A model generated the notes under the pieces. It was not told where the DNA came from and did no database searches. It was given only the letters and a program-made list of their open reading frames with translations. Positions 8,218-61,741 of a stretch of 64,000 nucleotides of DNA are shown here, one piece after another. The position numbers and the translations under genes were made by a program. Source of the stretch: an uncultured virus (IMG/VR IMGVR_UViG_3300033406_000004) (lineage: Duplodnaviria > Heunggongvirae > Uroviricota > Caudoviricetes); IMG/VR virus record IMGVR_UViG_3300033406_000004, one strand, 5' to 3'. Each line of letters starts with the position of its first letter. Position 1 is the stretch's first letter.

Positions 8218-8220
8218 CTT

Positions 8221-9386: not shown

Positions 9387-9423
9387 TAATAAAGTCCTAC
9401 GTCAGGTATGGCGTAGGCATAAC

Positions 9424-9809: not shown

Positions 9810-9828
9810 CATTCTAAATTTATATTTT

Positions 9829-20647: not shown

Positions 20648-21070
20648 TTATGATCTTTGAGGTTTCTTTCTTTCAGCTAAATGTTTCTTGATATTAATGG
20701 CAAGATCAAGACATAACTTATCGTAATAGGCTACTTCATCTTTCTTCGAGAGGTTAAACCATCTCTTACAAATGAAATTGACCACGTACTGGTTCATGCA
20801 TCTTGTTAGTGAGGCCAGAACATTTGTGTTCCAGCTTGAAGGCAGATTGAATGCGAATATGGCTTTATCTGTTCCGTCTGTTTTCAGATATCCATGCCGG
20901 GTAATAACTTCGGAAAGTCCGCTTACCGCTTCTCCCCAATAACTCAAAAGGATATTGCTTTCATCTTCTGTAGATGAGACCTTATCCGTCTCTCCTGTAT
21001 TCTTACCTGTATAACCGGTTATTTTGTATACCTCCGGCATTATATCGCTCTGTAAAATAGTTATTTCCAT
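20648..21070 (-). CDS. Putative head-tail adaptor/ring protein, paralog 1
   Basis: EV..ITGYTGK, QYVVN.I...WF, C-terminal RKKPQRS. Confidence 0.55.
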   Translation of the reverse strand: MEITILQSDIMPEVYKITGYTGKNTGETDKVSSTEDESNILLSYWGEAVSGLSEVITRHGYLKTDGTDKAIFAFNLPSSWNTNVLASLTRCMNQYVVNFICKRWFNLSKKDEVAYYDKLCLDLAINIKKHLAERKKPQRS

Positions 21071-21086
21071 TCCGATCTATTTTAGG

Positions 21087-21122
21087 CAAATATATTCATG
21101 GATGAAAAAAGTGAGGTTGCTG
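21087..21122 (-). promoter_or_regulatory. Putative late promoter
   Basis: Minus strand CAGCAACC-N20-TATATTTG. Confidence 0.65.
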
Positions 21123-21426
21123 AATTGCTAAAAGAAATTGCTTGTGAATAAATTAAAATGAAAATAAATGGATTTTATTGTCATTTTACAAAAAACATTA
21201 CTACATTTGGGCGTTTTGGAATAAAAAAATCAATAATCAATAATAATTGGACTACAAATTCCTCTATAGCGCCTCTGTTAAGCTATTGTTTTAGAACATA
21301 TTGTAAATGTAGCATAAAGATACGCTTGCAACATAAAATTAAGTGTTTAAGCATTCATTGCATGATATTAAGCGATATCTTTAAATAAGTAACCTTAGAA
21401 TAAACTGAATTAAAACAAATAAAGTT

Positions 21427-23175
21427 ATGTCATTCTTCCCGCCACTATCCGTTTCAGATGCAATTGAAAAGATTGATTACAATCAGTATTTACTTCCAGC
21501 TATTCAGAGGGATTTTGTATGGTCAAGTAGTAAAATTGAAATGTTGTTTGATTCTCTAATGCAAGGTTACCCTATTGGCTCAATGCTACTTTGGCGAGTT
21601 TGTGGGAAAAATGCAGAAAACCAAAGGTTTTATGGGATGTTGAAGAAATATCGAGAGCGCTATTTGATTCGTTCCGAGGAAGTTTCAACGAAGAATATAC
21701 CAAGCTTTGAGGTTGTTTTAGACGGACAACAAAGATTAACCGCCCTTTATATAGGATTAAAAGGATCTTATGCTTATCATGGTTATAACTTAGCTTGGAA
21801 GGACAATGAATACTCTATTCCAACAAGGTATTTATATCTAAATCTGAAATATAAGAAAAACAGAAAAAATGACCTAAACGATAGTGATGACGATAAGATG
21901 TATGAATTTTCTTTTTTAAAACCGGCTGAAGCTGAAAAAAATGATGCTAATAACAATTGGTTTAAAGTTGGAGATATTCTAGGAATTAAAGGTACAGCAC
22001 AACTATCAGCATGTTTTAAAAAGCATAATATCATAGAAAATGAAGCTCAAGAAATTTTATGCAAATTACACGACATTGTGCATTTAGAAAAACTAATTCA
22101 TTATTATTTGGAAGAAAGCTCTGATTTCACAAGGGCTCTTAATATATTCATTAGAATAAATTCTGGTGGAATTACATTGAGCTATTCAGACTTAGTAATG
22201 TCAACAACTATAATGGGTTGGACAAACTTAGATGCAAAAAAAGAAATAAATGGACTGGTAGATGAACTTGTAAGAGAATACGGATATTCTGTAAATAAAG
22301 ACTTTATTCTTCGAACCTATCTAGTACTATATAATGACGACATAAAGTTCAGAGTTAATAACTTTAGCGTCAAAAACGCCAAAGAATTTGAGAAACATTG
22401 GAGCAACATAAAGTTAGCAATTAGAGAGGTTTTTCAGTTGGTTACAGACTTTGGTTATGCCCCAAACGCGTTAACTTCTCTAAATGCGCTATTACCAATT
22501 GTATTTTATTTATACAAGGCAGATAGAATTGAAAATTTTTGCCAGAAAATAGCCTATAAAAAAGACAGATCGTTAATAAAAAAATGGCTTCACATAGTAC
22601 TTTTACACCAAATATTTGGAGGTCAAGCAGAAGGCGTTTTAAAAGCAATCAGAGATACAATCAAGAAAGAAATTGCAAAAGGAACTGAGCTTTTCCCTGC
22701 AAGTGCAATAGCAACAAGACTCTCTAAAACAAATAAATCAATAACTGTTGATGAAGAGTTTATCCAAGGGCTTTTATATACAAGCAAAGATAGCAGATAT
22801 GCTTTTCCTATTTTAGCCCTACTTTTTCCTCAGTTGGATTACAAAAATAGAGATTTTCACTTAGATCATTGTCATCCACTTTCCGTCTTCACGGAAAAGA
22901 AATTGAAAGCAAGAGGTATTATTCTCGATGATAGCAACAAAGAACATTTCACTAACTGGGATTATTTCAATTCAATTATCAACTTGCAGATGCTTGATGG
23001 AAATGAAAATAAGTCCAAAAATGCAAAGAGCTTAAATACTTGGGTCGCTGAAAATTCAATTCCATTGAAAAAATACTATCTCCCCGATGAACTTGAATTA
23101 AAAGACTTTCCAATATTTGTAGAAAAAAGAATAGCTTTATTAACTAAAGAATTAACCGAAATTTTAGTATTATAA
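21427..23175 (+). CDS. GmrSD-like type IV restriction protein (DUF262 + C-terminal HNH/DUF1524)
   Basis: LPAIQRDFVW, YPIGS.L.W, VLDGQQRLT, IF.RINSGG; C-terminal DHCHP...NLQML...N..KN. Confidence 0.85.
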   Translation: MSFFPPLSVSDAIEKIDYNQYLLPAIQRDFVWSSSKIEMLFDSLMQGYPIGSMLLWRVCGKNAENQRFYGMLKKYRERYLIRSEEVSTKNIPSFEVVLDGQQRLTALYIGLKGSYAYHGYNLAWKDNEYSIPTRYLYLNLKYKKNRKNDLNDSDDDKMYEFSFLKPAEAEKNDANNNWFKVGDILGIKGTAQLSACFKKHNIIENEAQEILCKLHDIVHLEKLIHYYLEESSDFTRALNIFIRINSGGITLSYSDLVMSTTIMGWTNLDAKKEINGLVDELVREYGYSVNKDFILRTYLVLYNDDIKFRVNNFSVKNAKEFEKHWSNIKLAIREVFQLVTDFGYAPNALTSLNALLPIVFYLYKADRIENFCQKIAYKKDRSLIKKWLHIVLLHQIFGGQAEGVLKAIRDTIKKEIAKGTELFPASAIATRLSKTNKSITVDEEFIQGLLYTSKDSRYAFPILALLFPQLDYKNRDFHLDHCHPLSVFTEKKLKARGIILDDSNKEHFTNWDYFNSIINLQMLDGNENKSKNAKSLNTWVAENSIPLKKYYLPDELELKDFPIFVEKRIALLTKELTEILVL

Positions 23176-23328
23176 AAAACTTTCATTTGATAAAAAACCG
23201 ACTGTATAACACAAGTTTATCTGTAATTAACAGCTGATATGCTTTTAGCAAATTCTATTTAGCAAATGCTAAATTCTATAAACTAAGATACTATATTGTA
23301 AAAAAAACAAACATCTAAATATAAACTC

Positions 23329-24618
23329 ATGGAAACAATAAAAGTCAAATACAAAATTATCCCTAAATGCAAAAAAAAACTAACCGAAATCATGGATACA
23401 ATTTGTAGAGATATCAGTTGGGGTACATCTATACCAGAGCTTTCTGCTGCTAAAAATTCGATCCAAAAAGACAAACAATTAGGAAAATATAATCCAGACT
23501 ATTATCAGCCAAGCTATACAATTGACCCTGATGGCTTAATTGAAGTTGAATTCAAGGCCAAAATGTTTAATTTTGAGCGAGAAGGAATGAATCATTTTAT
23601 TGGGACTATCGCTGGTGACATTACAACAAATAATGATATTGAAAAGATTGAAATTGTTGATATAATTTTCGACAAAAGTAATTTAAACAACTTCTTTAAG
23701 GGCCCCACTTCTGGAATAGATATTTTAAAAAATGAAATACTTGCTCCAACTTTGGAAGGGAAAAACAGACCCATAGTAGCGTTTACTGTAAAACCAAGAT
23801 TAGGGTTGACAATTAATCAATACAAGCAAATCATAGAGGAGGCTTCAATGAGTGATATTGATATTATAGAAGATGATGAAAGGCTTGTGGATCCAGATTA
23901 TTGTTTATTCAAAGATAGAGTTAAAGTAATAGGAGAGGTTATTAAAAAAGGCTGTAAATCAAAATTCTCTGTGAATATAACTGGAAATCCAGATTTATTA
24001 GAAGAAAAAATAGAATATGCCTATGACACAGGCATAAGAATATTTAAACTAGATGTTTTAGTCTCTGGATTTGATGTATTAATAAAGCTACGGAATATTC
24101 TAGAAAAATATCCCGAAAAAACAGCAATTACAGTTTTTCCTGATATAAAATCATACCGAAATATACGAAGAGATGTTATTTTGAAGTTATCAAGACTTTG
24201 TGGAGGTGATATTATTTATGCGGGTTCGACAATACTTTCTAGAATGGGGACAATAGAAAACCCAGATGAAATTATAGCACAAGATATTCCTAAACTAATA
24301 CATACACATCGAACACTATCTGAGTCAATAGGAAATATCGACAAAAGAACCTTACCATCGATGACACATGATATCAATCTAAAAAATGTTGAGCTTTTAA
24401 TTTACGGCATGCGTATTTATCAACATCATGACTACGCTTTATTCATAGGCGGTGGAATAAGTGGATTCCCGTATGAATACAGTATAAAAAAATCCTGTGA
24501 ATTATGGATGAAAATGATAAAACATGCAAGCGAAGTTTCCTTACAAGGAAAGAAGTATATAAAAGAGATAAATGATGAAACCTTTTTCAATTTAGATAAT
24601 GAAATTGATTGCTTATAA
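23329..24618 (+). CDS. RuBisCO large-subunit-like protein (divergent form IV/RLP)
   Basis: FKGPTSGI, RPIVAFTVKPRLGL, DIIEDDE, F.DR, VNITG, KLSRLCGGD and IGGGISGFP are colinear with RbcL motifs FQGPPHGI, RPLLGCTIKPKLGL, DFTKDDE, GGG..GHP. Confidence 0.88.
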   Translation: METIKVKYKIIPKCKKKLTEIMDTICRDISWGTSIPELSAAKNSIQKDKQLGKYNPDYYQPSYTIDPDGLIEVEFKAKMFNFEREGMNHFIGTIAGDITTNNDIEKIEIVDIIFDKSNLNNFFKGPTSGIDILKNEILAPTLEGKNRPIVAFTVKPRLGLTINQYKQIIEEASMSDIDIIEDDERLVDPDYCLFKDRVKVIGEVIKKGCKSKFSVNITGNPDLLEEKIEYAYDTGIRIFKLDVLVSGFDVLIKLRNILEKYPEKTAITVFPDIKSYRNIRRDVILKLSRLCGGDIIYAGSTILSRMGTIENPDEIIAQDIPKLIHTHRTLSESIGNIDKRTLPSMTHDINLKNVELLIYGMRIYQHHDYALFIGGGISGFPYEYSIKKSCELWMKMIKHASEVSLQGKKYIKEINDETFFNLDNEIDCL

Positions 24619-25139
24619 TAACAAAATTAGCATACATGGTACCTATCAGTTTTGATATATATTTTAAAATAATTGGAGGCATTGGCCTATTGAGCTTATT
24701 GCCTCAAATTACATCAATCTTCAAGATATTTGATGAAATAGAGAAATGTAAACTAGAAATAGAGAAACAAAGAACAATTGACCCTCACACAGAAAGACCA
24801 AATAAATTTGACAAAGAAATAGAAGATAATATAAAAAAAGCAGGGAATATGAAACCATTTATTAACAAATTTATGATAATCTTCGCTCTTTCAGTTTTTT
24901 CATCAATAATTTACGCTATATGCAAAGATATACCATATTTATCTAATGAAATATGGTATTCAAATTTTATTTCAATTGTTAGTTATATTTTCTTTATTTG
25001 TATACCCTTCTATTTTACAATATCAATTTATAGATTTTTCAATTTATATTATTTAATGATCCATTATAGTTCATTTAAAAATATTTATAACTATAAAAAA
25101 AATGAGACTAATAAGAAAAAACATTTTACTTTTAGATGA
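24609..25139 (+). CDS. Three-TM membrane protein (alternative start 24636)
   Basis: Hydrophobic segments IIGGIGLLSLL, FMIIFALSVFSSIIYAI, FISIVSYIFFICIPFYFTI; overlaps both neighbours. Confidence 0.65.
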   Translation: MLIITKLAYMVPISFDIYFKIIGGIGLLSLLPQITSIFKIFDEIEKCKLEIEKQRTIDPHTERPNKFDKEIEDNIKKAGNMKPFINKFMIIFALSVFSSIIYAICKDIPYLSNEIWYSNFISIVSYIFFICIPFYFTISIYRFFNLYYLMIHYSSFKNIYNYKKNETNKKKHFTFR

Positions 25140-26292
25140 GGTTGATTCTAATAAAAGCATTTTAGTGAATATCCCCGTTGGAATCATTATCAAGAATCAG
25201 GATACCTTAATAGAATATAATGAGGATTATATTATTGTTGAGCATACAGAGAAATATGATGACGATTTTTGGAAACAAATTAAGTTATATAAATCAGGAA
25301 ATATTGCAAATTTCATCTTTAATAATGAAGAACTAACAATATCCCTTGTGTACAACAATAACGACTATCTAAATGCAATAGGGCTTATTAAAGATTATCA
25401 TTACATAAAACACATCCCTAATGGATTGTTTATTACATTAAAGAGGAAACAAGACATATTAGGTGTTATTGTAATATCAAAACTAACGTATACAACACCT
25501 ACTGGACGTCAAATATATTTTTCAGGAAATTTAATTAATAAAGATTTAAAAAAAGAATTGAATGACTACGCAAACCATTGTATATGCTGGATTAGCCGGA
25601 TAGTCATTGAAGAAAAATCGAAAGGATATGGAGAAGCATTTTTGAATCAACTCCCTGAGTTTTTACTTTCTATTTTCCCAAATAAGAAATTAGAATTTAT
25701 AGAAGTTCTTACTTCGATTAAAGAAGAAGATGTTGCCAACAAGTTAAACCAACAGAATATTAATATTAGCGATTTTAAGTTATTTCAGTATAAAAAAGAT
25801 TTCTTTAGGAAAGTTGGCTATTTAAATGTAAACTTACCAGATAAAAATATCCTTGGAATTAGAAAAAATAGAATTTTTGAGAAGGATAACATAGTATTCA
25901 AAAAAGTAAAGATAAAAAAATTTTATTATATGAATGAAATAAATTCACAAAACAGATTATTCATTCCACTAAATGGAGAAGCATATAAATGGTTCAAAAG
26001 TGGAAATAAACAATGGGAAGTCCGCAAACTAAATGTTGGACAATATAACTTAAAAAACCTGATTGTTGGAAGAAAAGTCGAATTAAGACTTGGATATAGA
26101 CCTGGCAATAGTATTTGGGGCATTATAAAAGAAGTTCGAACCTATGATAATGCAAATAATCTAGTAAATGAAATTGATTTTAAACATCTAATACCGAGTG
26201 CCAATGATTCGAATGAAGCAACCCAGAAAATCATTGATTATGTTGGTTCTGAATCAAAAATAATAGCAATAAAAATACAATACGATGAGTAA
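25102..26292 (+). CDS. GNAT-like acetyltransferase fused to C-terminal ASCH/PUA domain
   Basis: WISRIVIEEKSKGYGEAFL, FIEVLT, FFRKVGY (GNAT); IPLNGEAYKWFKSGNKQWEVR...GRKVELRLGY...IIAIKI (ASCH). Confidence 0.75.
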   Translation: MRLIRKNILLLDEVDSNKSILVNIPVGIIIKNQDTLIEYNEDYIIVEHTEKYDDDFWKQIKLYKSGNIANFIFNNEELTISLVYNNNDYLNAIGLIKDYHYIKHIPNGLFITLKRKQDILGVIVISKLTYTTPTGRQIYFSGNLINKDLKKELNDYANHCICWISRIVIEEKSKGYGEAFLNQLPEFLLSIFPNKKLEFIEVLTSIKEEDVANKLNQQNINISDFKLFQYKKDFFRKVGYLNVNLPDKNILGIRKNRIFEKDNIVFKKVKIKKFYYMNEINSQNRLFIPLNGEAYKWFKSGNKQWEVRKLNVGQYNLKNLIVGRKVELRLGYRPGNSIWGIIKEVRTYDNANNLVNEIDFKHLIPSANDSNEATQKIIDYVGSESKIIAIKIQYDE

Positions 26293-26629
26293 CTCAGATA
26301 ATGTTCGCAAATATACAGCAAAATCTTTAGGATTAAAAGATACATATTATGAATTAGTTATATCGAGGAAAAAAACATCTACAATTCGATATGGATTTGT
26401 CTTTTTCAATGATATTATTACCACATTGACATTCAGCAATAAACCTCCAGTTAACGTAAAAATTAGAAAAATAGAATACAGCAAAACTTTTAACGACTTA
26501 AGTGACCTTGACGCAGAGTTAGATGGATATAATTGTTTAGATAATTTAAAAAATGATATAAGAAAATATTATCCAACGATTGAAGACTCAAGCCCAATAA
26601 CTATTGTTTATTTTGATCTTACTGTATAA
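26285..26629 (+). CDS. Stand-alone ASCH-domain protein (YqfB-like)
   Basis: YYELVISRKKTSTIR, LSDLDAELDGY..L..L...IRKYYP, ITIVYF. Confidence 0.85.
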   Translation: MSNSDNVRKYTAKSLGLKDTYYELVISRKKTSTIRYGFVFFNDIITTLTFSNKPPVNVKIRKIEYSKTFNDLSDLDAELDGYNCLDNLKNDIRKYYPTIEDSSPITIVYFDLTV

Positions 26630-26797
26630 ACAAAGAGCCAACAGTAAATAATACATGTAACTCTACAAAGTTACTGCAGACCACAACGGAGTCTCAGTGC
26701 ACTAGATCCCTGAATTATAGCACTAATAATTGTACTGTTCGGATGCTTATGATAAGCAAATAGACAGAGCAATACGAATATTAAAAGACTTAGCATT

Positions 26798-27110
26798 ATG
26801 ATACAGTTAGATGAAAAAAAACAGCGAAGCTCGAGACAACAAATCAGTTGCTTGACGAGAAATACGGAGAACATGGTACGTCAACCCAGGAGGGTTTTTA
26901 ATGAAAAAACAATAGCGCAGTATTATGGCGAAATACTTCGTGACAGGCGTAGAGAGCTTAAACTTACCCAAAAGCAATTAGCCCAGAAGATAAGTAAAAA
27001 ACAAAGTTATATAGCCCTGCATAAAAAGGAGAAGCAGATATTCAACTATCTAGTTTCTTCCGTATCGCTCGTGCGCTGAGCACTAAGTTTACCCCCTACG
27101 CTTATTTGAT
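26798..27110 (+). pseudogene. Frameshifted XRE/HigA-type antitoxin
   Basis: Frames switch: MIQLDEKK / AKLETTNQLLDEKYGEHGT / YYGEILRDRRRELKLTQKQLAQKI / EADIQLSSFFRIARAL; no toxin gene upstream. Confidence 0.75.
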
Positions 27111-27287
27111 GAATAACGAAAATATCATGCGGAGCTTCTCCTAACGGTCTCCAAATGTTTTAGGAGTTTTTGAAATGATTAATAAAAACAAAGCAAATCC
27201 TTGAAGAATATATGTAGGATTATGCTCAAGGATTTTGCAATACGGGGGCAAGAAAATGCATACCCTAGCTTTGCTTTTCATATAGTG

Positions 27288-28202
27288 CTATCTATTTTTA
27301 ATCCAATGAACAGCAATGTCAATCGGTTCAGCAGAGCCCGAAACATAATGTCCCAGTGTTGAAAATAAGCAATACTCGTAAGGTTTCCCTTGTGCCTTGA
27401 GTGCATTGAGGCGCTCTATCGATAGTCTTACTGGGACTTGTATATCCTTCTCGCCAAAAAGCCAAAGCCCCGGAATCGAGAGCGTGCTAAGGGCGTCGTA
27501 AGGATCAGTGTTCGCAAATTGATAGCGATCTGCAGCATTACGTATGTGTTCTCGTACCTCTGCTTCGGTGCGATTGTCCCAAAAATCAGGTTTCCCTTCT
27601 GTAAAAAACTGAAACCTAAGTTGCTCTAGAGTTGAGACCATAGATCCGCTAAACAACAGCATAAAATTCACAAGCGAATTTTTGTTTGCGGCAATGGGAA
27701 TTATCCACCCTGCCTGACTGAAACCGACCAAACCGATAGATACATTTTTCTCCCGCTGATGCTGATGAAGTATATTTATGGCGGCGGTTGCATCTTCAGC
27801 CAAGAGGTTGAGATTAGCAGAATCAATGTTGTTAGTACCCACTTCCGGACCGGCATAAATCCCACCCGATTCACCAACTCCACGTTTATCATATGTTAAC
27901 ACCGAAATGCCTTTTTTAGCCAAAAGCGATGCGAAATTTCTCATTCGAGGTGTCTGGTCAGAACCATGTACCAGAACTACCGCGACATGTGAATGCTGGG
28001 GTGTGTAGATCGTACCAACAAGAGTGACTCCCTCGCTTTCAAATCTGATATCCTCAACGGTCACGCCCGGTGATTGGGCTTTTAACTGATTCGATAATAC
28101 TGGCAATAACAACAAAAAAAAGGCATACCGGCAAAAAAATGCGATATTCCTTAATCTATCAACGTTTTTAATGTAACTTATGGTGCAATTTATAGGGGCC
28201 AT
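27288..28202 (-). CDS. Secreted alpha/beta hydrolase (S9/CocE-like)
   Basis: VHGS, YDKRGVGES, GFSQAG nucleophile elbow, GEKD..VP, GH; signal-like N-terminus. Confidence 0.88.
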   Translation of the reverse strand: MAPINCTISYIKNVDRLRNIAFFCRYAFFLLLLPVLSNQLKAQSPGVTVEDIRFESEGVTLVGTIYTPQHSHVAVVLVHGSDQTPRMRNFASLLAKKGISVLTYDKRGVGESGGIYAGPEVGTNNIDSANLNLLAEDATAAINILHQHQREKNVSIGLVGFSQAGWIIPIAANKNSLVNFMLLFSGSMVSTLEQLRFQFFTEGKPDFWDNRTEAEVREHIRNAADRYQFANTDPYDALSTLSIPGLWLFGEKDIQVPVRLSIERLNALKAQGKPYEYCLFSTLGHYVSGSAEPIDIAVHWIKNR

Positions 28203-35472: not shown

Positions 35473-35701
35473 AGTGCTTTATGCAACACTTGGGAATAGT
35501 TATTATTCCGTTTGCCTGTTCCAGGGTATTATTAGTTTCCTCCGCATAGCTCCCTGATAACGAGATGAGCTTATCATCCTCATAAATGACAAAACCTATA
35601 CTTTTAACAAGAAGACTTTGCGGAGTGAAATTCTCCACATCACTCCACCCCCCCGTAGCCCCGTAGCTGTCTGTCCATATCACTAATCGGATCTCTTTCA
35701 T
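35414..35701 (-). CDS. Small phage protein
   Basis: V.WTDS....W...SIGF...IP.CCI pattern; ATGA overlap with endolysin. Confidence 0.65.
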   Translation of the reverse strand: MKEIRLVIWTDSYGATGGWSDVENFTPQSLLVKSIGFVIYEDDKLISLSGSYAEETNNTLEQANGIITIPKCCIKHSICLSCCQELVSAQKQRPT

Positions 35702-36273
35702 GCGTATTTGAATGAATTAATGCGATTAAGCCAACCTGTTTTAAACCGGGCATTTGCAGGGCGGTTCCTGATAATGTCATCAATATACTTTTTACGGGCA
35801 GTTACGATCTGATTAAACAAAGTTTCCTGATTGGCAGAGTTGACAGCTTCCAACGTTTTAGGCCCGACAGTTCCATCCGATTGAACCTCTAATACTCTCT
35901 GAGGTATTGTGATGCCGTAAGATCCGGAAGCCCACACCCAATCCACTAGGATATCAGCGATTGACTGATTGTTGATTTTGTCTGCCTGCCATCTGTCCCA
36001 AAAGATTGATTTAACGATATCCCGCCAATGAGGATATGAAATATTCCTAAGTGATAATACCGTTGGTCTGGGATAACCTTTTTTCCTACAATACATTTCA
36101 TAAGTTGTCAGTGTAACACCTATCATGGTTGCACCTCCCGTATCAACAGGATCATTGGAGAATCCTGTTTTCTTAGCCCTTTCAAATAGAGATTCGTTCG
36201 ATTCACCAGCCTTGGCAATACACCCGGCTTCCCATCTTATTAAATGAGGGATGAGTTTTTCCACATTAGCCAT
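35698..36273 (-). CDS. Endolysin, glycosyl hydrolase 108 + PG-binding domain
   Basis: WEAG...NDPVDTGGATMIGVT, DWVWASG, DGTVGPKTL, F..GWLNR; start ATG 36273. Confidence 0.9.
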   Translation of the reverse strand: MANVEKLIPHLIRWEAGCIAKAGESNESLFERAKKTGFSNDPVDTGGATMIGVTLTTYEMYCRKKGYPRPTVLSLRNISYPHWRDIVKSIFWDRWQADKINNQSIADILVDWVWASGSYGITIPQRVLEVQSDGTVGPKTLEAVNSANQETLFNQIVTARKKYIDDIIRNRPANARFKTGWLNRINSFKYA

Positions 36274-36520
36274 TTTCGCTTCCTTTCTTCTCTTTAAGAC
36301 CGGCAACACCCGTAATAATAAGTGCCGCAAGTGTTATATATCCCACATTATTAACGATGCATTCAGGAAGAGCAATGTTCATTCCCTGGAAAGTAAACCA
36401 TGCACCCGGTACAACGGCCGCAATTGTGGCCGCTGAATTTCTGATAATCTTTGCCACTCTTGGCGTTTCGGCCTTCCAACGACGTGGCAAATCCTTGATA
36501 AAAGCAATAATCTTTTTCAT
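36266..36520 (-). CDS. Holin (two TM)
   Basis: RRWKAETP, two hydrophobic helices, charged tail; overlaps the endolysin start. Confidence 0.7.
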   Translation of the reverse strand: MKKIIAFIKDLPRRWKAETPRVAKIIRNSAATIAAVVPGAWFTFQGMNIALPECIVNNVGYITLAALIITGVAGLKEKKGSENG

Positions 36521-37480: not shown

Positions 37481-40400
37481 TTAATTACTGTAACTTCCAA
37501 GCCAGTGATAGCCGTCATATATGATATGATATAGTTGTCCATAAGCTACTTTAACGCTTGATACGTAACCTGTTCCATACGTCCCAGCATGAAGAATATT
37601 ACTTGATGTTGAAGCGATAGTAATATTCCCTGCGGCTGTTTTTCTCACCCAATACTGTTTTCCAACTGTCGGACTAGCGGGTAAAGAAAGGGTTATGTCG
37701 CTTGTCGCCGTGCTAACAATGAATGCCTGACTGTAATCTAGTGATAGGTTAGCCGACACACGTGTAGGGTAAAAACTAGGGGCGTATAAAAGCGTTCTGC
37801 CTGTCATCAGTGTTGATTCTCCTGTCCTTGCAATAAATGTGTGATTACCGGATGAATACAAGGCCGTTCCGCCTTGTTGGGCGGTTAGCTTGATACATAT
37901 TCCCGTTGTTTCGTCGGTATAGCAGTAAAGCCCCGTAACGGCATCGGCTCTTATCTGCATAAGATAAGTAGACGTATCATTAATTCGTAAGAATCTCGTC
38001 ACCGATGGTTCTACTAATATCTTGGCACCTGCTGCACTAGTTATCTTCAATGCGTTACCCTCAACGGACCACCCACCTATCTTTGCTCCGGATGTAACAG
38101 TCAATCTGCCCGTTGTTATATCCGTGGCGGCTATCTTAGTGGCTAAAAGCGATGTGGTTATCATAGCGTCCGCATCAATCAGAGATGTTTTGATATAACC
38201 GCCTTCAATTACCGTACTGTCAAGCTTGGCCAACGAAACGGCACTTTCATAAGCCAGACCTCCCAAAGAGTTTTTTAATGTGCTTAATCCGCTATTGGCT
38301 GTATCGGCACCAGACAAAGCACTGTTTGCAGTCGAGGTTGCAGCATTAGCCGTACTCTGTGCCGTGTTAGCGGCAGAAGCCGCACTACTCGCCGTTGACT
38401 GAGCGGTAGTTATTCGCCCCTGTGAATCGCTGTCCAACGAGCTGAAAGTTACCATTCCGGCAAGGCTGAGTGCCTGACCGAACACGGATATGCCGCCCGA
38501 TGTGATACTAATCCCGGCTTTTATTTCGGTTGTTGTCGGGCGAAGAGCGATGCTTGCGTCCACATCTTCGGGGGCGGGTGTCCAATCGGTAGCCTTATTG
38601 CCAATTTCAAACTTTACTCCACAGACATACGCTTCGTTGCCATTAAGAATTCTACAGACCAATACATTTTTTACTTCGGTTATTGTCCCGGTTTTCCATA
38701 CAATCCAGACACGTTTCCAATCAGATGTTAACGTTGTGGCTATTGATCCGTCGGCAGATGTAGTTGAATTTCCTGCCGAATTATATCCGGAAACGACACA
38801 GGAGGGATAAAAATAACTAACGAAACCGCCAGTACCTTTGCACCAAAAAGATAAAGTGTATTCCGTATTTGATTCAGGTGTTATAGCACCATACCATACG
38901 CAGATATCCGCATACATATCTCCTGAATAACTGCCATGAATAATACTGAACCCGTTGTATGTATCCGATGTCAGCCATCCGATGCTCGAACTCCCACTAA
39001 AATCTTTTGTACCTTTTAGCAAGTTTCGTCCGCCAACCTGCACACCATCCACTGCCGTTTGTGCCGCTTGATTACTAGCCTGCAAAACTATTCCGTCAGC
39101 TTTTACATTGATACTTGCCTCTGCTGTCTCCGCTTTGTCCGCTGCCGTCTCTGCCCGGGTGGCTTTAAGCTCAACTGCGTCTGCCGTCTGGTTTATGCTT
39201 GTCTCCTTCTGAGTTACTGTTTGCAGAATAGTTGCCGCATTATTAGCCGCATTGGTTGCATCGGTAGCTTTCTCTCCGGCCGTGGTTGCAGAAGCGGCCG
39301 CTTCACTCGCTTTGGTACTTGCTGTTCCGGCAGAATCGGCAGCTTCTCCCGCTTTGGTCGTTGCCGTTTGTGCGGCGGTTATGGCTTGTGTGACCTTTGT
39401 GCTTATTTCTCCCTCCCGTATCTCGAAAGCCGTTTGAACCGCTGTTATCTGATCGCTTAGTTCATCCTCAACAGACTTGCCATTTCTTAAAATGAATAAC
39501 CCTTTCAAGAACACATTACCCGCCCAAAGACCGTAACCGCTTGGCTGTGCATCAGAGGGGAAATCGGAATCGGTAATCCCGTCCAAACAACCTAGTATCA
39601 CTTTGGATTTACCTGTCAGATCGGTTGAGCTGACACCATCAAGCACACTAAAGCGGGGTTTGCCGTCTTCGGATGCGGTGAGATACAATACACCTTGTCG
39701 GGCCGTGTTTGTTTTGTTACCCATCTGAACAAGATCATCGCCAATGGCCGGAACAACTCCATCAGGAAACTCTGATTTTAAAATCAGGATTGTTTCACCG
39801 CTCACCGAATCAATCGGCACCCAGTAGTATTTTGCACCTGTAGCACTGAATACCTGACAACGTACCAAGTCATCGGCGACAAAAGTCATATCGCCTTCAA
39901 TGCCTAACACGTAGTAAGTTGGTGAGCCTGTTGTCTCTGATACTGATTTAACACGCCCGTTTGCCGGAGAGACAACCAAGCCGCCATTAACAGAGCGAAT
40001 TTTTGAAACAATCAGTTCAAAAACGGTCATACCCTTGCGGATAACAACGTTATCAACTTCCAAATTCCAATCACCGTTCAGGGCTTTATAAAGCTTCATT
40101 CCTTCACCCGTTATGCCGGGAACAAAAGATTCAGAGCTTATATAATCCTTAACTATCGTACGAAAGAGAGTGGCTACATTGGATACGTTCAGATCGTATA
40201 TCTCTGCAAGCTTTTGAACAAGCAAGTTCAGCGTAGTGACTTTATCCGATACAGTTACCGTCTCTGCCTCCAATGCCGCAACCGTAGCCTTGATACGTGC
40301 TATGAGATTACGTACCTCTGCATCACCGTCAGCATCTATCTTTGCACCGGATTCACCGACTGAATATTCTCCTGTCTCTAAGCCGGCAAGTAATTTCAAT

Positions 40401-40624
40401 AGAAAAGAGGTTGAATCAGCCTGATCCTTACGTAGGAAAGTGGATTGTGCCCTTAAAGAAGAAAAGGCATTTTTATCTGATGGGGTTGTAAGATCGCCCA
40501 GTTTAATTAAGTATATTTCAGGTGAAGAGCCGCCACTACCCGCCCCTGATTTCAACTTGAGAATTACAGTTTTACCACTGACCTCAAAAAGTATATCGCT
40601 GTTTTCCTCATCTATCTGATACAT
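37481..40624 (-). CDS. Tail fibre / receptor-binding protein
   Basis: LEVD.V.IRK...IRSVNGGLVVSPA region, Ala/Thr-rich shaft, GGRNLL...KFEIGNKATDWTPAPED carbohydrate-binding-like module, LSLPASP..G C-terminus. Confidence 0.85.
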   Translation of the reverse strand: MYQIDEENSDILFEVSGKTVILKLKSGAGSGGSSPEIYLIKLGDLTTPSDKNAFSSLRAQSTFLRKDQADSTSFLLKLLAGLETGEYSVGESGAKIDADGDAEVRNLIARIKATVAALEAETVTVSDKVTTLNLLVQKLAEIYDLNVSNVATLFRTIVKDYISSESFVPGITGEGMKLYKALNGDWNLEVDNVVIRKGMTVFELIVSKIRSVNGGLVVSPANGRVKSVSETTGSPTYYVLGIEGDMTFVADDLVRCQVFSATGAKYYWVPIDSVSGETILILKSEFPDGVVPAIGDDLVQMGNKTNTARQGVLYLTASEDGKPRFSVLDGVSSTDLTGKSKVILGCLDGITDSDFPSDAQPSGYGLWAGNVFLKGLFILRNGKSVEDELSDQITAVQTAFEIREGEISTKVTQAITAAQTATTKAGEAADSAGTASTKASEAAASATTAGEKATDATNAANNAATILQTVTQKETSINQTADAVELKATRAETAADKAETAEASINVKADGIVLQASNQAAQTAVDGVQVGGRNLLKGTKDFSGSSSIGWLTSDTYNGFSIIHGSYSGDMYADICVWYGAITPESNTEYTLSFWCKGTGGFVSYFYPSCVVSGYNSAGNSTTSADGSIATTLTSDWKRVWIVWKTGTITEVKNVLVCRILNGNEAYVCGVKFEIGNKATDWTPAPEDVDASIALRPTTTEIKAGISITSGGISVFGQALSLAGMVTFSSLDSDSQGRITTAQSTASSAASAANTAQSTANAATSTANSALSGADTANSGLSTLKNSLGGLAYESAVSLAKLDSTVIEGGYIKTSLIDADAMITTSLLATKIAATDITTGRLTVTSGAKIGGWSVEGNALKITSAAGAKILVEPSVTRFLRINDTSTYLMQIRADAVTGLYCYTDETTGICIKLTAQQGGTALYSSGNHTFIARTGESTLMTGRTLLYAPSFYPTRVSANLSLDYSQAFIVSTATSDITLSLPASPTVGKQYWVRKTAAGNITIASTSSNILHAGTYGTGYVSSVKVAYGQLYHIIYDGYHWLGSYSN

Positions 40625-44669: not shown

Positions 44670-45157
44670 TGCCGTTCATACTCATACTGTTTTTCTTTTA
44701 CGCCATTGGTTCATTCATAGACATGAGGGCGTTTGGCATTAGTACAACTTCTCCATGGTGGTGTTTATTCACCTATAGCTTTATCCATTTATCATTCACG
44801 CATCTGCTTGTGAACGCGTTCGTATTCTTATCATACTGGCGTAAGATGAAAGGGATCATAAATATATATTTCTTTATTCCTCTTATCATCACGGTGCCCG
44901 TAATAGCCGCCATATTAAGTGCCCACAAAGATATTACAGTCGGAGCATCGGGCATTATTTACGCAATTATCGGCATATACATAGTAGCCTTTCCATTACC
45001 AAGGAATGTTCTAATCAAATTTATAACTTTAATTGTCCTAAGCTTTGCGTTGACCTGCTTTTTGCCATCGGTGAATACAGGTATCCACATATACAGCTTT
45101 CTTCTATCTTTAGTTGTAAGCCTTTTATGCAGGAGGTTTATTTATGCTAAATACTAA
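44669..45157 (+). CDS. Rhomboid-family intramembrane serine protease
   Basis: FTYSFIHLSFTHLLVN (H-x4-H-x3-N), VGASG catalytic Ser, His in VNTGIHIYSF; ~6 TM helices. Confidence 0.9.
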   Translation: MPFILILFFFYAIGSFIDMRAFGISTTSPWWCLFTYSFIHLSFTHLLVNAFVFLSYWRKMKGIINIYFFIPLIITVPVIAAILSAHKDITVGASGIIYAIIGIYIVAFPLPRNVLIKFITLIVLSFALTCFLPSVNTGIHIYSFLLSLVVSLLCRRFIYAKY

Positions 45158-47162
45158 TCAGATAATAGAGGAAAACCGCAAAAGACTTGCAGAAATCCGC
45201 AAACCATATAATCCCGTAACCGGGGAAGGATCAATATCGATACCCAGAGTTGAAGTAAGGATCAAAGATTGTCCGATAGAAATATTATATCTTCCTGAAA
45301 CCTTTGCAGAGACAGGTTTTGTCAAAAAGCTCATTGAAGTGGGATTCAACGGGTACATCAAAATAGTACTCAAGACGGGGATAACGGAAGATTTGCGGGA
45401 CAGCTTGTGGACTGAGTTCAACAAAGAAAGGATAAAACACGACTTTGAGTTCTGGGCTTTCATGCTTGCCGTGATAGCAGCCAAAGGAGAAGGGCGTGAC
45501 GTTCCTTTTACCCTTAACAGAGCGCAACGATATTATTTAAAAGAATTAGAAGAACTAAGATTGGCCCAAGTGCCGATAGACATCATATTGTGTAAGGCCC
45601 GACAATGGGGAGGCTCAACACTCACACAGCTTTATATGCTGTGGATACAGCTATGCCACAAGAGAAACTGGAACTCCGTCATTTGCGGAGACGTTCAGAC
45701 GCAAGCCTCTGTCGTGGCCGGCATGCTTTCAAAAGTTCTTAGAAACTACAAGGATTGGGCCACGGACGGAGTTAAGCTGAAATCAAGACCATTCGAAGGT
45801 TCCCAGAGCACAAGAATAATTGATTACTCTCAATGTATTTACTCTCTGGGGTCCGCTCAAAAGCCTGAATCCCTGCGAAGTCAGGACGTTTCCATGGCTC
45901 ACTTATCAGAGGTGGGTATATGGAAAGAAACCAAAGGTAAGAAACCCGAAGATCTCGTTCAGGCCATATTCGGATCTATATTATCCGCTCCCTACACCAT
46001 GAAAGTTTTGGAATCCACGGCAAAAGGTGTGGGTAACTACTTCCATCGCACATGGCTTGATGCGGTGCAGCACAAAAACAACTTCAAGGCCGTCTTTGTG
46101 CCGTGGTTCATGATCGATATCTACTCTAAAAAACTGGATACCAAGAAATATTGCGATTTCATTGCCACAATGAACGAGTATGAGCATTGGTTATTCCGGT
46201 TGGGAGCCACGCTAGAGGCCATAAACTGGTACAGGGGAAAACAAAAAGAGATAAAGGATACCTGGCGCATGTGCTCTGAATATCCTTCAACGGCAAATGA
46301 AGCTTTCCAAAGTACGGGTAAACGTATATTTCCGATGCAATACGTGGAAAACGCCCGGCGTACATGCATCGATCCATGTTTCTACGGGGAGTTTGTGGGG
46401 AAAGCGGATAAAGGCAAAGATGCCTTTGAAAATCTACGTTTTGAACACCTGTCATCACACGAAAAGAAAGAAGATAACTGTCTATGGGTATGGGTTATGC
46501 CCGATCTGTCAACTAACTATAGGGACAGATATGTCGTGTCAGTGGATGTCGGAGGTGTTTCAGACAGCTCAGATCCATCCGTAATAAAAGTGGCGGACAG
46601 GCTTCCGATGTTGGAGGTTGAAGGATTACCTGAAGTGGTGGCCGAATGGCATGGCCACATTGAACACGATTTGTTGATCTGGAAAGCGGCTCAGATAGCT
46701 CGAGCTTACGGGAACGCCCTACTCGTGATTGAAAGTAACACGCTGGAAACGGACGGCACGGAAGGAGATAATTCCGAATATATATTAGAAGAGATCAGAG
46801 GGTTCTATGATAATCTATATTCGCGAACATCTCCGGAGCAAATAAAAAAAGGAATGCCCACCAAATACGGATTCCACACAAATACGAAAACGAAGCCGGC
46901 GGTTATCGGATTCCTGAAATCTGCCATGCGGGATTGTTTATACATAGAGAGAAGTCGCCGGACCACGTTCGAGTTTGACCTTTACGAGCTCAAGGAAAAC
47001 GGTACGGAGATGGGAGCCGTGGAAGGCAATCATGATGACCTTGTCATGGCTACAGCGATAATGATATACGTATGTTATAAATGGGCTCTGCCGACTTTGA
47101 TAAAAGCCATGACGGAGAAAGAAAAAAGACGAACCAGAATAGTGAGTGAAGCATCTATGTAA
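45144..47162 (+). CDS. terL: Terminase large subunit
   Basis: KARQWGGST Walker A, AHLSEVG Walker B, ESTAKG, VDVGG, IESN, HDDLVMA. Confidence 0.92.
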   Translation: MLNTNQIIEENRKRLAEIRKPYNPVTGEGSISIPRVEVRIKDCPIEILYLPETFAETGFVKKLIEVGFNGYIKIVLKTGITEDLRDSLWTEFNKERIKHDFEFWAFMLAVIAAKGEGRDVPFTLNRAQRYYLKELEELRLAQVPIDIILCKARQWGGSTLTQLYMLWIQLCHKRNWNSVICGDVQTQASVVAGMLSKVLRNYKDWATDGVKLKSRPFEGSQSTRIIDYSQCIYSLGSAQKPESLRSQDVSMAHLSEVGIWKETKGKKPEDLVQAIFGSILSAPYTMKVLESTAKGVGNYFHRTWLDAVQHKNNFKAVFVPWFMIDIYSKKLDTKKYCDFIATMNEYEHWLFRLGATLEAINWYRGKQKEIKDTWRMCSEYPSTANEAFQSTGKRIFPMQYVENARRTCIDPCFYGEFVGKADKGKDAFENLRFEHLSSHEKKEDNCLWVWVMPDLSTNYRDRYVVSVDVGGVSDSSDPSVIKVADRLPMLEVEGLPEVVAEWHGHIEHDLLIWKAAQIARAYGNALLVIESNTLETDGTEGDNSEYILEEIRGFYDNLYSRTSPEQIKKGMPTKYGFHTNTKTKPAVIGFLKSAMRDCLYIERSRRTTFEFDLYELKENGTEMGAVEGNHDDLVMATAIMIYVCYKWALPTLIKAMTEKEKRRTRIVSEASM

Positions 47163-47189
47163 AAGAAAAGGGGATTAACCCCCTTTCTT
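47161..47189. terminator. Bidirectional terminator
   Basis: AAAAGGGG-attaac-CCCCTTT between convergent terL and portal genes. Confidence 0.7.
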
Positions 47190-49194: not shown

Positions 49195-49209
49195 AGTTGC
49201 TCTTTTAAA

Positions 49210-49249
49210 CAAAAGTATCAGTTAATGTTTCTACGTGCTTTGTTGAATT
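49210..49249 (-). promoter_or_regulatory. Putative late promoter of the portal gene
   Basis: Minus strand AATTCAACAAAG-N20-TACTTTTG. Confidence 0.5.
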
Positions 49250-60316: not shown

Positions 60317-61525
60317 TTAGTAATTCACTACCGCCAGATCAAAATCTCCCGGAGAATTGGTATAATCAATAACTCGGCAAATTGCCGCATCGGCCTGTCT
60401 TTGCATGATACGCACATAATTGTAAATTGGGCGGTTCTCTTTCATCGACTGGCCTATACAATATTCAATGATCTCCGTCTTTATTCCAAGGTCGAAAGCA
60501 AACTGAGAGAAAGTCTTTCTTCCGGAGTAAAAAGAGAACTCTGTTTCAATGCCTACCACTTTGGCCAGATTCTTCAAACACCTGTTTAAATAGCGTTGGA
60601 AGTTTGAATACGAGAAATTATACCCGAAATCCAACTTCCCGTTTCTCTTTAGGTATTTCTTGATAATTGGTTTGGCTTCATCCGGAATAGAAAAGGTTAT
60701 CGACTTATCTCCCTGCTTATTCAAGTTCGTTTTTTGCCGGACATACTTTATCGTGTCACCGCTGAAATCCACCTGAACGATATCGGCCAGATTCATTCCG
60801 CCAAGATAGAAAGAGAGCAGAAACAAATCTTTTGCGAGGGACAAACGTTTGTGTTTGGTCTCGAGCGTGCGGATTCGGTTAAACTCCTCTATTGTTATAT
60901 CCAACTGCTTGATGTTGGACCTTGGCATTTTGGTATATGCGAAAGGATGGACCTCGTATTTAACCATACCGTCACGTATGGCCTCGTTGATACTGGCTTT
61001 CAGATGAGTCAGGCGCATTTGCTTGGTTGCGTTGCTCAAGTTACTCATACCCCTGACAAACTTATCAATGGTTCCGGGAGAGAAACTTTGAAGGGTTATG
61101 TCACCAATGATATTAAGTATCTTGGTGAGGGTGTAGACATTCATATCCGCATAACTCCCCCTGCCCTCTTTCCGCAATCTCTCAATGCGTTGTTCCATCC
61201 ATTCTTTGATGGTGGTCAACTGCTCTATCCGATGTTTGCCTTCGAGTATTTCTTTTATCTGTGCGCTATTGTATACATACTGATCAGGAATGCCCTCAAG
61301 CTTCTCCTGATATTCCGAAAGAACATACTTTAGACGCAGATTCATCGTGTTTGCGTCTTTGCGACAGATAACCTTGCCATTTTCAAATTGGTATAGACCA
61401 TCAATCACATAATCCGTTTTAATGTAACGGATGTCATTGCGGGTTTGCATAACCGCAATATAAATAGGATACTTTTTTTCTAAAGTTCGTCTTGATCTTA
61501 AGACTGATAAATAAATTGTTGCCAT
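60317..61525 (-). CDS. int: Tyrosine recombinase (phage integrase)
   Basis: Arm-binding N-terminus, SAM-like middle, LFLLSFYLGGMN..D, Y.RQKT, FYSGRKTF, IEYCIGQ, YNY; adjacent to att. Confidence 0.92.
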   Translation of the reverse strand: MATIYLSVLRSRRTLEKKYPIYIAVMQTRNDIRYIKTDYVIDGLYQFENGKVICRKDANTMNLRLKYVLSEYQEKLEGIPDQYVYNSAQIKEILEGKHRIEQLTTIKEWMEQRIERLRKEGRGSYADMNVYTLTKILNIIGDITLQSFSPGTIDKFVRGMSNLSNATKQMRLTHLKASINEAIRDGMVKYEVHPFAYTKMPRSNIKQLDITIEEFNRIRTLETKHKRLSLAKDLFLLSFYLGGMNLADIVQVDFSGDTIKYVRQKTNLNKQGDKSITFSIPDEAKPIIKKYLKRNGKLDFGYNFSYSNFQRYLNRCLKNLAKVVGIETEFSFYSGRKTFSQFAFDLGIKTEIIEYCIGQSMKENRPIYNYVRIMQRQADAAICRVIDYTNSPGDFDLAVVNY

Positions 61526-61667
61526 AATTTAAAATGTTCAGCGACAAGCACAGCGACAAGCAGATTTGCTCATGTACGGGTAAGTTTGCCGTTTTTTTTA
61601 AATATCACAACATTTTCCGAGAAAGGAAAAGAGCCGTAAATCGTTGATTTACAGCTCGTTACAAAAG

Positions 61668-61741
<74 letters not shown>

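Follow-up and report, generated by a model that had tools for sequence, protein, structure and literature searches.

A clade of RuBisCO-like proteins with glutamate at the carbamyl-lysine position, encoded with GNAT, ASCH and membrane proteins, and its member in a prophage island

The RuBisCO-like gene and its immediate neighbours

The DNA analysed here is a stretch of 64,000 nucleotides from an uncultured virus of the Caudoviricetes (IMG/VR record IMGVR_UViG_3300033406_000004), referred to below, at its full length, as the window. It encodes a RuBisCO-like protein (RLP), in which the lysine that is carbamylated in RuBisCO is replaced by glutamate. The protein belongs to a clade defined by this replacement, and its gene is part of a conserved cassette, whose members are found in differing orders and fusions. 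The cassette genes and the motifs discussed in the text are listed below; residues with canonical RuBisCO functions are numbered as in the spinach enzyme, all others as in the window protein.

23329..24618, plus strand: RLP of the Glu-type clade, 429 aa from an ATG start (open reading frame (ORF) listing; Pfam PF00016 and PF02788)
23791..23799, plus strand: K155-P156-R157, the KPK motif with K177 replaced by Arg (translation; invariant in 109/109 Glu-type sequences)
23869..23880, plus strand: EDDE motif, with E181 at the carbamyl-Lys (K201) position, followed by D182, D183 and E184 (translation and alignments)
24046..24054, plus strand: K240-L241-D242, on strand 4 (alignment; coordinates calculated from the ORF start)
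24636..25139, plus strand: small membrane protein, 167 aa from an ATG, with three hydrophobic segments and a charged linker (hydropathy)
25102..25950, plus strand: GNAT-fold domain, preceded by an N-terminal beta-rich part; closest structure, phage Mu Mom (AlphaFold2, Foldseek and VIA)
25951..26292, plus strand: ASCH-fold domain, here called X, the C-terminal part of the GNAT ORF (VIA fold match)
26285..26629, plus strand: stand-alone ASCH protein, 114 aa (Pfam PF04266, E 2.7e-8)

The GNAT and X domains are encoded by a single ORF (25102..26292, plus strand; 396 aa), the GNAT-like region spanning residues 1-283 and X residues 284-396, about 113 aa, as delimited by BLASTP and own hidden Markov models (HMMs). 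Start and stop codons of the cassette genes in the window overlap or lie close; for the small membrane protein, the ORF listing starts at a TTG at 24609 (176 aa), overlapping the RLP stop codon. The same gene order is found in the closest locus, L001, where the homologue of the membrane protein, which has no Pfam family, is 49% identical.

Fold and residue map of the RLP

The RLP scores 76.8 bits against Pfam RuBisCO_large (PF00016; E 2.3e-21; cut-off 30.1), which places it in the superfamily, while the match to RuBisCO_large_N (PF02788) is marginal, at 20.9 with a cut-off of 20.7. When all PDB sequences were searched by phmmer, the best matches were archaeal form III RuBisCOs (E 1.5e-18 to 3.6e-17), and weaker matches, at 1e-12 to 1e-8, were obtained with form I enzymes and solved RuBisCO-like proteins. 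The AlphaFold2 model, built on 70 homologues, has a mean pLDDT of 93.2 and spans both domains (residues 1-429) on RuBisCO chains, with VIA Z scores of 34-38. The top VIA match is 2cwx_E (Z 37.9, root mean square deviation 2.7 A, 372 residues), and Foldseek returned 3a13 at 9.8e-27. Both the homology to RuBisCO and the fold are far beyond chance.

Residues were mapped on a MAFFT alignment of 202 family members, i.e. distinct proteins of at least 340 aa, pooled from homologue searches and fetched loci, together with the annotated form I RbcL of a plasmid locus (L053). In this RbcL the motifs KPK, KDDE, HRA, GKLEG, SGG and GGG are found at 168, 194, 287, 326, 372 and 396, respectively. Spinach numbers, which we take to be the conventional ones, correspond to the RbcL position plus 7, an offset that is constant over all these motifs.

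The alignment reproduced all nine residue assignments that a first-pass annotation of the window had made by eye. K175 is kept (K155) and K177 is replaced by R157; K201 is replaced by E181, followed in the EDDE motif by the retained D203 and E204 (D183 and E184; alignment and translation). N123 is replaced by D97, H294 by F270 and H327 by Y297, and the SGG motif (S379-G-G) by T346-H347-D348, while the GGG phosphate loop (G403-405) is kept at 374-376. Further residues, beyond those nine, could be assigned: R295 is replaced by P271, K334 by R305, E60 by D28 and N205 by R185, and T65 is retained as T33. The translation reads VKPRL at 23788..23802 and DIIEDDERL at 23860..23886. In the HMMER alignment with Thermococcus kodakarensis RuBisCO, IIEDDERL is laid over YMKDDENL, VKPRLG over PKPKVG and DIIYAGS over DQLHVGT, with E181 facing the Lys of KDDE, K155 and R157 facing KPK, and Y297 facing the His of LHVGT.

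Conservation of the glutamate

A word-indexed search identified 70 homologues of the RLP, at 27-74% identity. Glu is found at position 201 in 70/70, and none retains KDDE; their alignment shows no variation at E181, D183, R185, K155, P156 or R157, and conservation of at least 90% at D182 and E184. When 1.84 billion cluster representatives were searched exhaustively by phmmer, 413 proteins were identified at E <= 1e-3, 108 at E <= 1e-10 and 27 at E <= 1e-30.

Within the 202 family members, the K201 column contains Glu in 109 sequences, Lys in 60, and other residues (I, V, R, L, A, T, F, C, M, S) in 33. In a FastTree phylogeny, a single clade (support 1.0), to which no other type contributes, unites 108 of the 109 Glu-type sequences. 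The one outlier, P0200, shows an independent K201 to Glu replacement (LVEDDEK), and keeps KPRLG and His at the H294 and H327 columns. E181, K155, P156, R157, D183, N216 and D242 are present in 109/109 Glu-type sequences, K240, P271, D294 and Y297 in 108, R185 in 105 and T268 in 103. The 60 Lys-type relatives show His at 270 (53 sequences), Arg at 271 (31) and His at 297 (32), Met or Leu at 240, Asn or Asp at 242, and K, S, N or C at 157.

The Glu clade is divided into two deep sub-clades, A, which includes the window RLP, and B, whose members are 19-25% identical to it. Sub-clade A is characterized by the motifs DI[IV]EDDER, VK[IL]DVL, ITVYPD, GADIIYAGSP and FVGGGISGF, sub-clade B by N[IL]VELD[AT]RNL, IK[IV]DGG, ITxYP[IL]L, GADI[IV]YPGG and YFLGGAVALH. 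E201 and D203 are universal in the clade; D202 and E204 are not.

These figures rule out the possibility, considered in the first-pass annotation, that this copy is just degenerating, since the Glu is invariant not only in the 70 homologues, but in all 108 members of the clade. For a decaying pseudo-enzyme, a drifting copy of RuBisCO or of an RLP, the only point in favour is that many canonical residues are replaced. The same replacements recur in 108 sequences, at identities as low as about 20%, the window ORF is uninterrupted and its structure is predicted with high confidence; such a reading may be discarded for practical purposes. Glu-type RLPs that are truly broken look different: one (L004, 7998-8894) ends at 298 aa and is followed by a 249-aa ORF (9311-10060), IS3-type transposase-like by eye, and another (L022) is in two pieces, at 84-584 and 977-1606.

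Records of Glu-type RLPs are patchy, coming from Bacteroidota-like genomes, Bacillota, Balneolota and Gammaproteobacteria. Among isolates, the entire cassette is present in Anaerobacterium chartisolvens DSM 27016; the RLP of Fodinibius saliphilus is known from a protein match alone.

Active site of the Glu-type proteins

In RuBisCO the metal is bound by the carbamate of Lys201, by D203 and by E204, and the site is completed by K175, H294, H327 and K334 and by E60, T65 and N123 of the partner subunit. Carbamylation of the lysine is the textbook activation of RuBisCO and of its characterised relatives; to our knowledge, all characterised RLPs are enzymes and retain the carbamylated Lys. In the window protein K201, K177, H294, R295, H327, K334 and S379 are all replaced, which, judged from the RuBisCO mechanism, makes carboxylation very unlikely, in agreement with the first-pass annotation. 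Because R295, H327, K334, S379 and K177 are changed, the substrate should not be ribulose 1,5-bisphosphate, and no CO2 should be added.

The same annotation had proposed that the Glu could stand in for the carbamate as a constitutive metal ligand. This is plausible, and, since the Glu is invariant, it is likely to be functional; taken by itself, the proposal is too simple and probably incomplete. E204 is lost in sub-clade B (E-L-D-A/T), the side chain of Glu falls short of carbamyl-lysine by several bonds, and the Glu is fixed in the clade together with K240 and D242 on strand 4, R185 and R157. Taken together, these features favour a carboxylate/metal site that has been remodelled over one in which the carbamate is simply imitated.

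The retained residues are those expected of a working site and not of a relic: K175, D203, the GGG loop and T65 are kept, and E60 and K334 are conservatively replaced (D28 and R305), which points to a dimeric site able to close loop 6. The pattern also argues for a predicted site that still binds phosphate at the P1 position. To this extent the residue map is consistent with the view, expressed earlier for this protein, of a new chemistry without carboxylation.

The other view expressed there was that of a binding-only sensor. The RLP would bind a phospho-sugar or nucleotide-derived ligand, and either the GNAT/ASCH proteins or the membrane protein would receive the signal. The loss of K201, H294, H327 and S379 is in line with it, and so is the finding of another Lys-less lineage fused to TIR or located beside NACHT/STAND proteins, a setting in which domains that sense ligands are frequent. 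Against it, K175 and D203 are strictly kept, D28 and R305 form a conservative pair, the GGG loop is preserved, and the newly fixed R157, R185, K240 and D242 are placed at strand ends, in a pattern typical of catalytic sites. The characterised RLPs known to us are all enzymes. A purely sensing role appears unlikely.

Composition of the cassette

Loci were collected from genome-contig scans (8) and metagenome-contig scans (44). The tally of 52 loci with a member of the clade includes the window, as well as duplicates across collections, such as L007/L027, L034/L035, L039/L040 and L017/L018. An ASCH ORF is found in 40 of them, a GNAT in 24 (own HMMs) and X in 24. The membrane protein is recognized by HMM in 22, a number that rises to 37 when any ORF with 2-3 transmembrane (TM) segments, directly downstream of the RLP, is counted.

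For 23 loci the available sequence extends at least 1500 nt upstream and at least 600 nt downstream. At least one GNAT, X or ASCH partner is present in 23/23, and ASCH in 22/23; in the 7 that lack an own-HMM GNAT match, Pfam GNAT is found in the upstream gene. In 19 of the 23 the RLP is followed by a 2-3 TM ORF. The loci without any partner are 11: ten have 359 nt or less upstream, and the other (L024) has 76 nt downstream.

Gene order varies. In Bacillota (L002, L003, L004, L006 and L017) the order is GNAT, X+ASCH, RLP, TM protein, and in L005, L007 and L009 it is RLP, TM protein, GNAT, (X), ASCH. Fusions are found in four combinations, namely GNAT+X, X+ASCH (in Bacillota), ASCH+RLP and GNAT+X+ASCH (L028). 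ASCH is located at the N-terminus of the RLP in P0067, P0078 and L007, and X is encoded on its own in L007, L009, L010 and L016. Loci of sub-clade B feature one GNAT...ASCH protein of 450-530 aa, the RLP, and then an ORF of 133-148 aa with 2-3 TM segments. This cassette, with its conflict-type setting described below, constitutes the larger finding, and had gone unmentioned in the first-pass annotation.

Genes for a kinase, an isomerase, a phosphorylase or a transporter are not conserved alongside the cassette in the examined flanks. This bears on a reading in terms of ordinary metabolism, according to which the RLP subfamily would act in the salvage or catabolism of acetylated compounds, either nucleosides such as N4-acetylcytidine or sugars such as an acetylated pentose, with GNAT and ASCH as pathway enzymes and the mobile location as an incidental feature. 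Characterised RLPs are indeed metabolic, with roles in methionine salvage and in apiose and acid-sugar catabolism, as stated in the relevant passages of PMC6389311, ASCH proteins include an N4-acetylcytidine amidohydrolase (9kyf), and several loci have housekeeping flanks. On the other hand, besides the absence of such co-conserved genes, the distribution is patchy, the flanks are variable and often contain integrase or restriction genes, just 27 representatives among 1.84 billion are found at E <= 1e-30, and the window copy has defence genes on either side, in the low-GC island of the prophage. A metabolic role is accordingly regarded as rather improbable.

Folds of the partner proteins

The 396-aa GNAT-X protein of the window has no Pfam match. 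Its AlphaFold2 model (pLDDT 93.3) was compared by VIA-align with 48,161 representative chains. Domain X (284-396) matches 2z0t_A (PH0355; Z 16.4, root mean square deviation 1.7 A, 105 residues), 1xne (PF0470; Z 12.5) and the E. coli N4-acetylcytidine amidohydrolase YqfB (9kyf; Z 12.0). Since its best VIA matches are ASCH proteins, X was assigned to the ASCH fold. Comparison of the X and ASCH profiles by hhalign gave a probability of 0.45% over 28 columns, a result superseded by the fold match. No Pfam EVE match at E <= 5 was found among 7 X-domain sequences, and the 114-aa ASCH protein had no match below E 0.1 when compared with the PDB by phmmer.

For the GNAT region (about residues 62-318) the top VIA match is phage Mu Mom (8bv8_B; Z 12.5, 177 residues), other GNATs following at Z 10-11.6, and Mom is also first by Foldseek, at 2.5e-7. 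Homologues of the protein show Pfam GNAT matches, and the one from L010 a sub-threshold match to Pfam Mom (PF25680; E 0.013, 15.6 with a cut-off of 27.1). The consensus of the GNAT protein retains GxG at the place expected for the pyrophosphate-binding loop.

The likeness to Mom brings in a counter-defence reading, in which the cassette would encode a pathway for the hypermodification of nucleic acids, shielding the element from restriction. The GNAT would acylate a base in DNA or RNA of the phage or element itself, ASCH would read or trim the modification, and the RLP would make or recycle a co-substrate derived from a sugar-phosphate. Besides the first rank of Mom in both structural searches and the weak Pfam match in one homologue, this is favoured by the fact that Mom modifies adenine, as reported in the portion of PMC13219725 concerned with the reaction, and by GNAT-EVE + ASCH operons in prophages, which may protect phages according to the section that Bell, Wolf and Koonin 2020 (PMC7641849) devote to them, the cassette being phage-borne here. 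The Mom score, however, is within 1 Z of ordinary GNATs (11.6), which amounts to a tie, and the window GNAT gives no Pfam Mom match at E <= 5. Most copies are located on bacterial contigs beside restriction-type genes, it is hard to see what the membrane protein would do in DNA modification, and the cassette adjoins a GmrSD-type enzyme, of a class that attacks modified DNA. On these grounds the hypermodification pathway is given a low probability.

The prophage and its low-GC island

The window contains a prophage of about 61.5 kb, located at a tRNA-Arg, whose replication genes include a RecT-like gene, an exonuclease, a helicase and a replication initiator. Its features, other than those of the cassette, are listed below; strands are given where recorded.

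30-127 and 61613-61709: imperfect direct repeats of about 95 nt, 90-91% identical, overlapping tRNA-Arg(TCT); likely attL and attR
9741-9810: tRNA-Asn(GTT), inside the replication region
21306..26794: block in common with a soil-metagenome contig, about 99.4% identity, 31 differences
21427..23175, plus strand: GmrSD-type enzyme (PADLOC HEC-05, 1.1e-192; Pfam GmrSD_N, 2.4e-33)
27288-28202, minus strand: alpha/beta-hydrolase-like protein
28498-29226, minus strand: AbiEi-like protein (PADLOC, 1.7e-37)
29802-30836, plus strand: PHROG 3364 protein, 344 aa
32256-33314, plus strand: PDC-S31 (PADLOC, 1.1e-32)
35698..36330: endolysin
37481..40624: tail fibre
45144..47162: terminase
47188..49212: portal
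49251-57932, minus strand: virion-type giant protein, 2893 aa, with DarB-like antirestriction and lysozyme-like segments (PHROGs 14770, 10089, 938)
60317..61525, minus strand: integrase
61667..61741: tRNA-Arg(TCT)

The cassette lies in a low-GC stretch (22-26 kb), with 27-31% GC versus about 40-48% elsewhere, in the phage core. The island is located between virion or unknown genes and the lysis gene, and carries HEC-05, the AbiEi-like protein and PDC-S31 along with the cassette. The AbiEi-like gene is followed by the alpha/beta-hydrolase-like gene, and not by AbiEii. The GmrSD gene is a neighbour and not a conserved member of the cassette, being absent upstream of the RLP in L009. The soil-metagenome contig (7847 nt) matches the window over 21306..26794 and diverges beyond 21306, which indicates that the GmrSD gene and the cassette move as one block. 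This location, in the defence island of a prophage, makes a role in phage-bacterium conflict the most likely one.

Other loci of the clade are found in similar company, and some beside housekeeping genes. The cassette is flanked by PDC-S60, an Mrr-like nuclease and a WYL protein in L002, by a type II methylase and a RecD-like helicase in L006, and by HNH nucleases, a DUF927 primase-like gene and an integrase in L007; a resolvase and an integrase are found in L005, ShosA and PIN in L039, and RES, Hsp70 and CHAT in L041.

The nearest virus record (G001, 20.7 kb, sharing 26% of k-mers) contains no RLP, and the 14-36 kb region gave no megablast match among INPHARED phages. A tblastn search of plasmids with the RLP produced 3 weak matches, two of which are annotated form I RuBisCOs, at 23% identity. 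One apparent relative in IMG/VR (L054) was rejected, there being no ORF at the site.

Relation to known RuBisCO-like proteins and operons

The best relatives of the RLP, by both sequence and structure, are form III RuBisCOs, as found in T. kodakarensis (3A12/3A13), Pyrococcus horikoshii (2CWX) and Hyperthermus butylicus (6HUN), with 110.3 bits for NCBIfam rubisco_III and VIA Z scores of 36-38 over about 372-379 residues. Two-domain fold, K175, D203, E204 (in sub-clade A) and GGG loop are common to both. Identity, however, is only about 20%, K201 is replaced by E, K177 by R, H294 by F/Y, R295 by P, H327 by Y, K334 by R and SGG by THD, and, unlike form III, the RLP has no neighbours from the adenosine monophosphate pathway.

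All scores fall below the cut-offs for bona fide RuBisCOs (110.3 versus 497 for rubisco_III, 108.8 versus 438 for PRK04208, 49.9 versus 489 for the form II model PRK13475), and the residues that distinguish such enzymes are missing, Lys201 being replaced by E, and K177, H294, R295, H327, K334 and S379 by R, F, P, Y, R and T, respectively. Form IV RLPs, such as MtnW/YkrW (2ZVI/2OEM), the proteins of Chlorobium (1YKW/1TEL) and Rhodopseudomonas (2QYG/3QFW), and OiaX, have a comparable fold (Z 34-36); they too lack the carboxylation residues and, where the reaction is known, they enolise phospho-sugars. Their sequences are more distant than those of form III (E 1e-12 to 1e-8), and the gene neighbours of the characterised ones are metabolic, whereas those of Glu-type RLPs are GNAT and ASCH.

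Lacking the carboxylation residues, the RLP falls operationally into form IV, a class defined by exclusion, which says little on function. It is not a 2,3-diketo-5-methylthiopentyl-1-phosphate enolase (66.6 versus 409 for NF007095, 48.8 versus 513.6 for TIGR03332), and no mtn genes are present in the examined flanks; nor is it OiaX, the 3-oxo-isoapionate-4-phosphate decarboxylase (44.4 with a cut-off of 700). The protein is therefore a member of the superfamily, form IV by exclusion, that belongs to none of the named subfamilies.

As for the partners, uncharacterised (PIN-)GNAT-EVE + ASCH operons were reportedly described by Iyer et al. in 2013. In these operons, as in the cassette, a GNAT is fused to a PUA-superfamily domain and a separate ASCH gene is present (PF04266 in the window). 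The corresponding passages of Bell, Wolf and Koonin 2020 (PMC7641849) describe them as common in prophages or located beside restriction systems, as uncharacterised, and as possibly protecting phages. The cassette differs in that its GNAT-fused PUA-superfamily domain has ASCH proteins as best matches (2z0t, Z 16.4) and no Pfam EVE match, and in that an RLP and a membrane protein are added; the words RuBisCO and ribulose occur nowhere in Bell et al. (PMC7641849). Phage Mu Mom (8BV8), the top structure for the cassette GNAT, is phage-borne, too, at 9-11% identity. According to the part of PMC13219725 dealing with its activity, Mom acylates adenine in DNA with Gly-tRNA and acts alone, and the words ASCH, RuBisCO and PUA occur nowhere in that paper.

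About 80 divergent IV-like RuBisCO homologues, of unknown function, are located on phage contigs, as stated in the section of Jaffe et al. 2019 (PMC6389311) on these sequences. Like the RLP, they are phage-carried and have key residues unlike those of known form IV, and their sources in the same section (PMC6389311) are IMG/VR and groundwater phages, some of them Myoviridae or of about 200 kb. The IMG/VR scans reported below argue, to some extent, against the Glu clade being included in this group. In the ESM Atlas the RLP adjoins a cluster of 92 members, in which Uroviricota is the most frequent of the known phyla; this is only a lead. A full-text literature search produced no paper linking a RuBisCO-like protein to ASCH, to GNAT and prophages, or to anti-phage defence, and a search on K201 and carbamylation no statement on Glu-type RLPs.

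Other RuBisCO-like lineages

The lineage with Phe at the K201 column, mentioned above, is found in immune-type company. P0158 is a fusion of TIR_2 (E 3.3e-13), RuBisCO_large_N and RuBisCO_large; in L008, the sole non-Glu locus fetched, the RLP (7680-9176; Phe at 201) is flanked by a protein with NACHT and FGE-sulfatase domains, a His_Phos_1 phosphatase and an AAA_16/TPR protein, and the cassette is absent.

Further architectures, seen in P0174, P0177 and P0161, are Lys-type RuBisCOs with an N-terminal IF-2B domain, of the ribose-1,5-bisphosphate / methylthioribose-1-phosphate isomerase family, and an RLP with a C-terminal cupin. RLPs with Ile at the K201 column form a tight group (P0130, P0132, P0170, P0173, P0184 and P0194); four of them (P0132, P0173, P0184 and P0194), 581-594 aa long, have a C-terminal extension of about 200 aa without Pfam family.

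Proposed role and significance

With some reserve, it is considered probable that the RLP is a folded, maintained, CO2-independent and non-carboxylating enzyme acting on a phospho-sugar, and a component of an undescribed cassette of phage-bacterium conflict. Carboxylates of the protein would hold a divalent metal, with no need for activation by CO2, and the enzyme would enolise or isomerise a mono-phosphorylated carbonyl sugar, probably derived from a nucleotide. The Mom-like GNAT would be an acyltransferase, the ASCH fold would read or deacylate N-acylated nucleobases, and the small protein with 2-3 TM segments may be an effector or an anchor. The cassette as a whole would serve in superinfection exclusion or defence, or in its counter, the direction being a matter of interpretation.

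Several observations weigh against this proposal. The loss of E204 in sub-clade B means that the metal site of RuBisCO has not simply been kept. The equivalent Lys to Glu mutant of Rhodospirillum rubrum RuBisCO, described by Estelle et al. in 1985, was reportedly inactive. In a PADLOC scan of the window (v2.0.0, including PDC-M11), the RLP, TM and GNAT-X proteins had no match at E <= 0.01, and the ASCH protein gave a chance-level match to Drt4 alone (E 0.0084); 9 cassette proteins of L002, L006, L007 and L009 gave 0 PADLOC matches at E <= 1e-5. Scans of IMG/VR with profiles of sub-clades A and B returned 0 confirmed relatives, and tblastn of the RLP against INPHARED phages gave no match, so that the prophage copy is so far the sole clearly viral one. 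Several loci have housekeeping neighbours, such as ATP synthase, S-adenosylmethionine synthetase, a penicillin-binding protein and glgB. Promoter- and terminator-like sites in 21000..27400 are as numerous as in shuffled sequences (36 versus 35.8 and 2 versus 2.5, respectively). Contigs from an RNA library cover 23528-23694 and 24505-24660 at a depth of about 3, which is not above that of the DNA run from the same sample, and transcription of the RLP is therefore not shown by them.

A more ambitious version of the conflict hypothesis can be put forward tentatively, as a possibility and not as an expectation: the RLP would be the catalytic core of a new immune or counter-immune system, borne by prophages and mobile elements, and, CO2-independent and with a built-in carboxylate, would convert a nucleotide-derived phospho-sugar; the GNAT and the two ASCH domains would write, read or erase an N-acyl mark on a nucleobase or nucleotide, and the membrane protein would act as executor.

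What emerges is that a new clade of RuBisCO relatives has been combined with a GNAT/ASCH module which, although known, is uncharacterised, with a realistic chance of representing a new conflict system. A natural clade with a conserved Glu offers a ready-made test of whether a built-in carboxylate can take the place of the carbamate, and of which compensating changes are needed, the Lys/Asp pair of strand 4 and the Arg residues being the candidates. The tight linkage, in a prophage defence island and in other mobile contexts, ties the RuBisCO fold to nucleic-acid-centred conflict systems, a link absent from the literature searched, and the uncharacterised GNAT + PUA/ASCH operons gain an enzymatic partner that can be tested. 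If the more ambitious version is true, and the TIR-fused or NACHT-flanked Phe-type lineage is taken into account, the RuBisCO fold would have been recruited more than once into phage-bacterium conflict, where it would act as a processor or sensor of molecules derived from ribose-phosphate.

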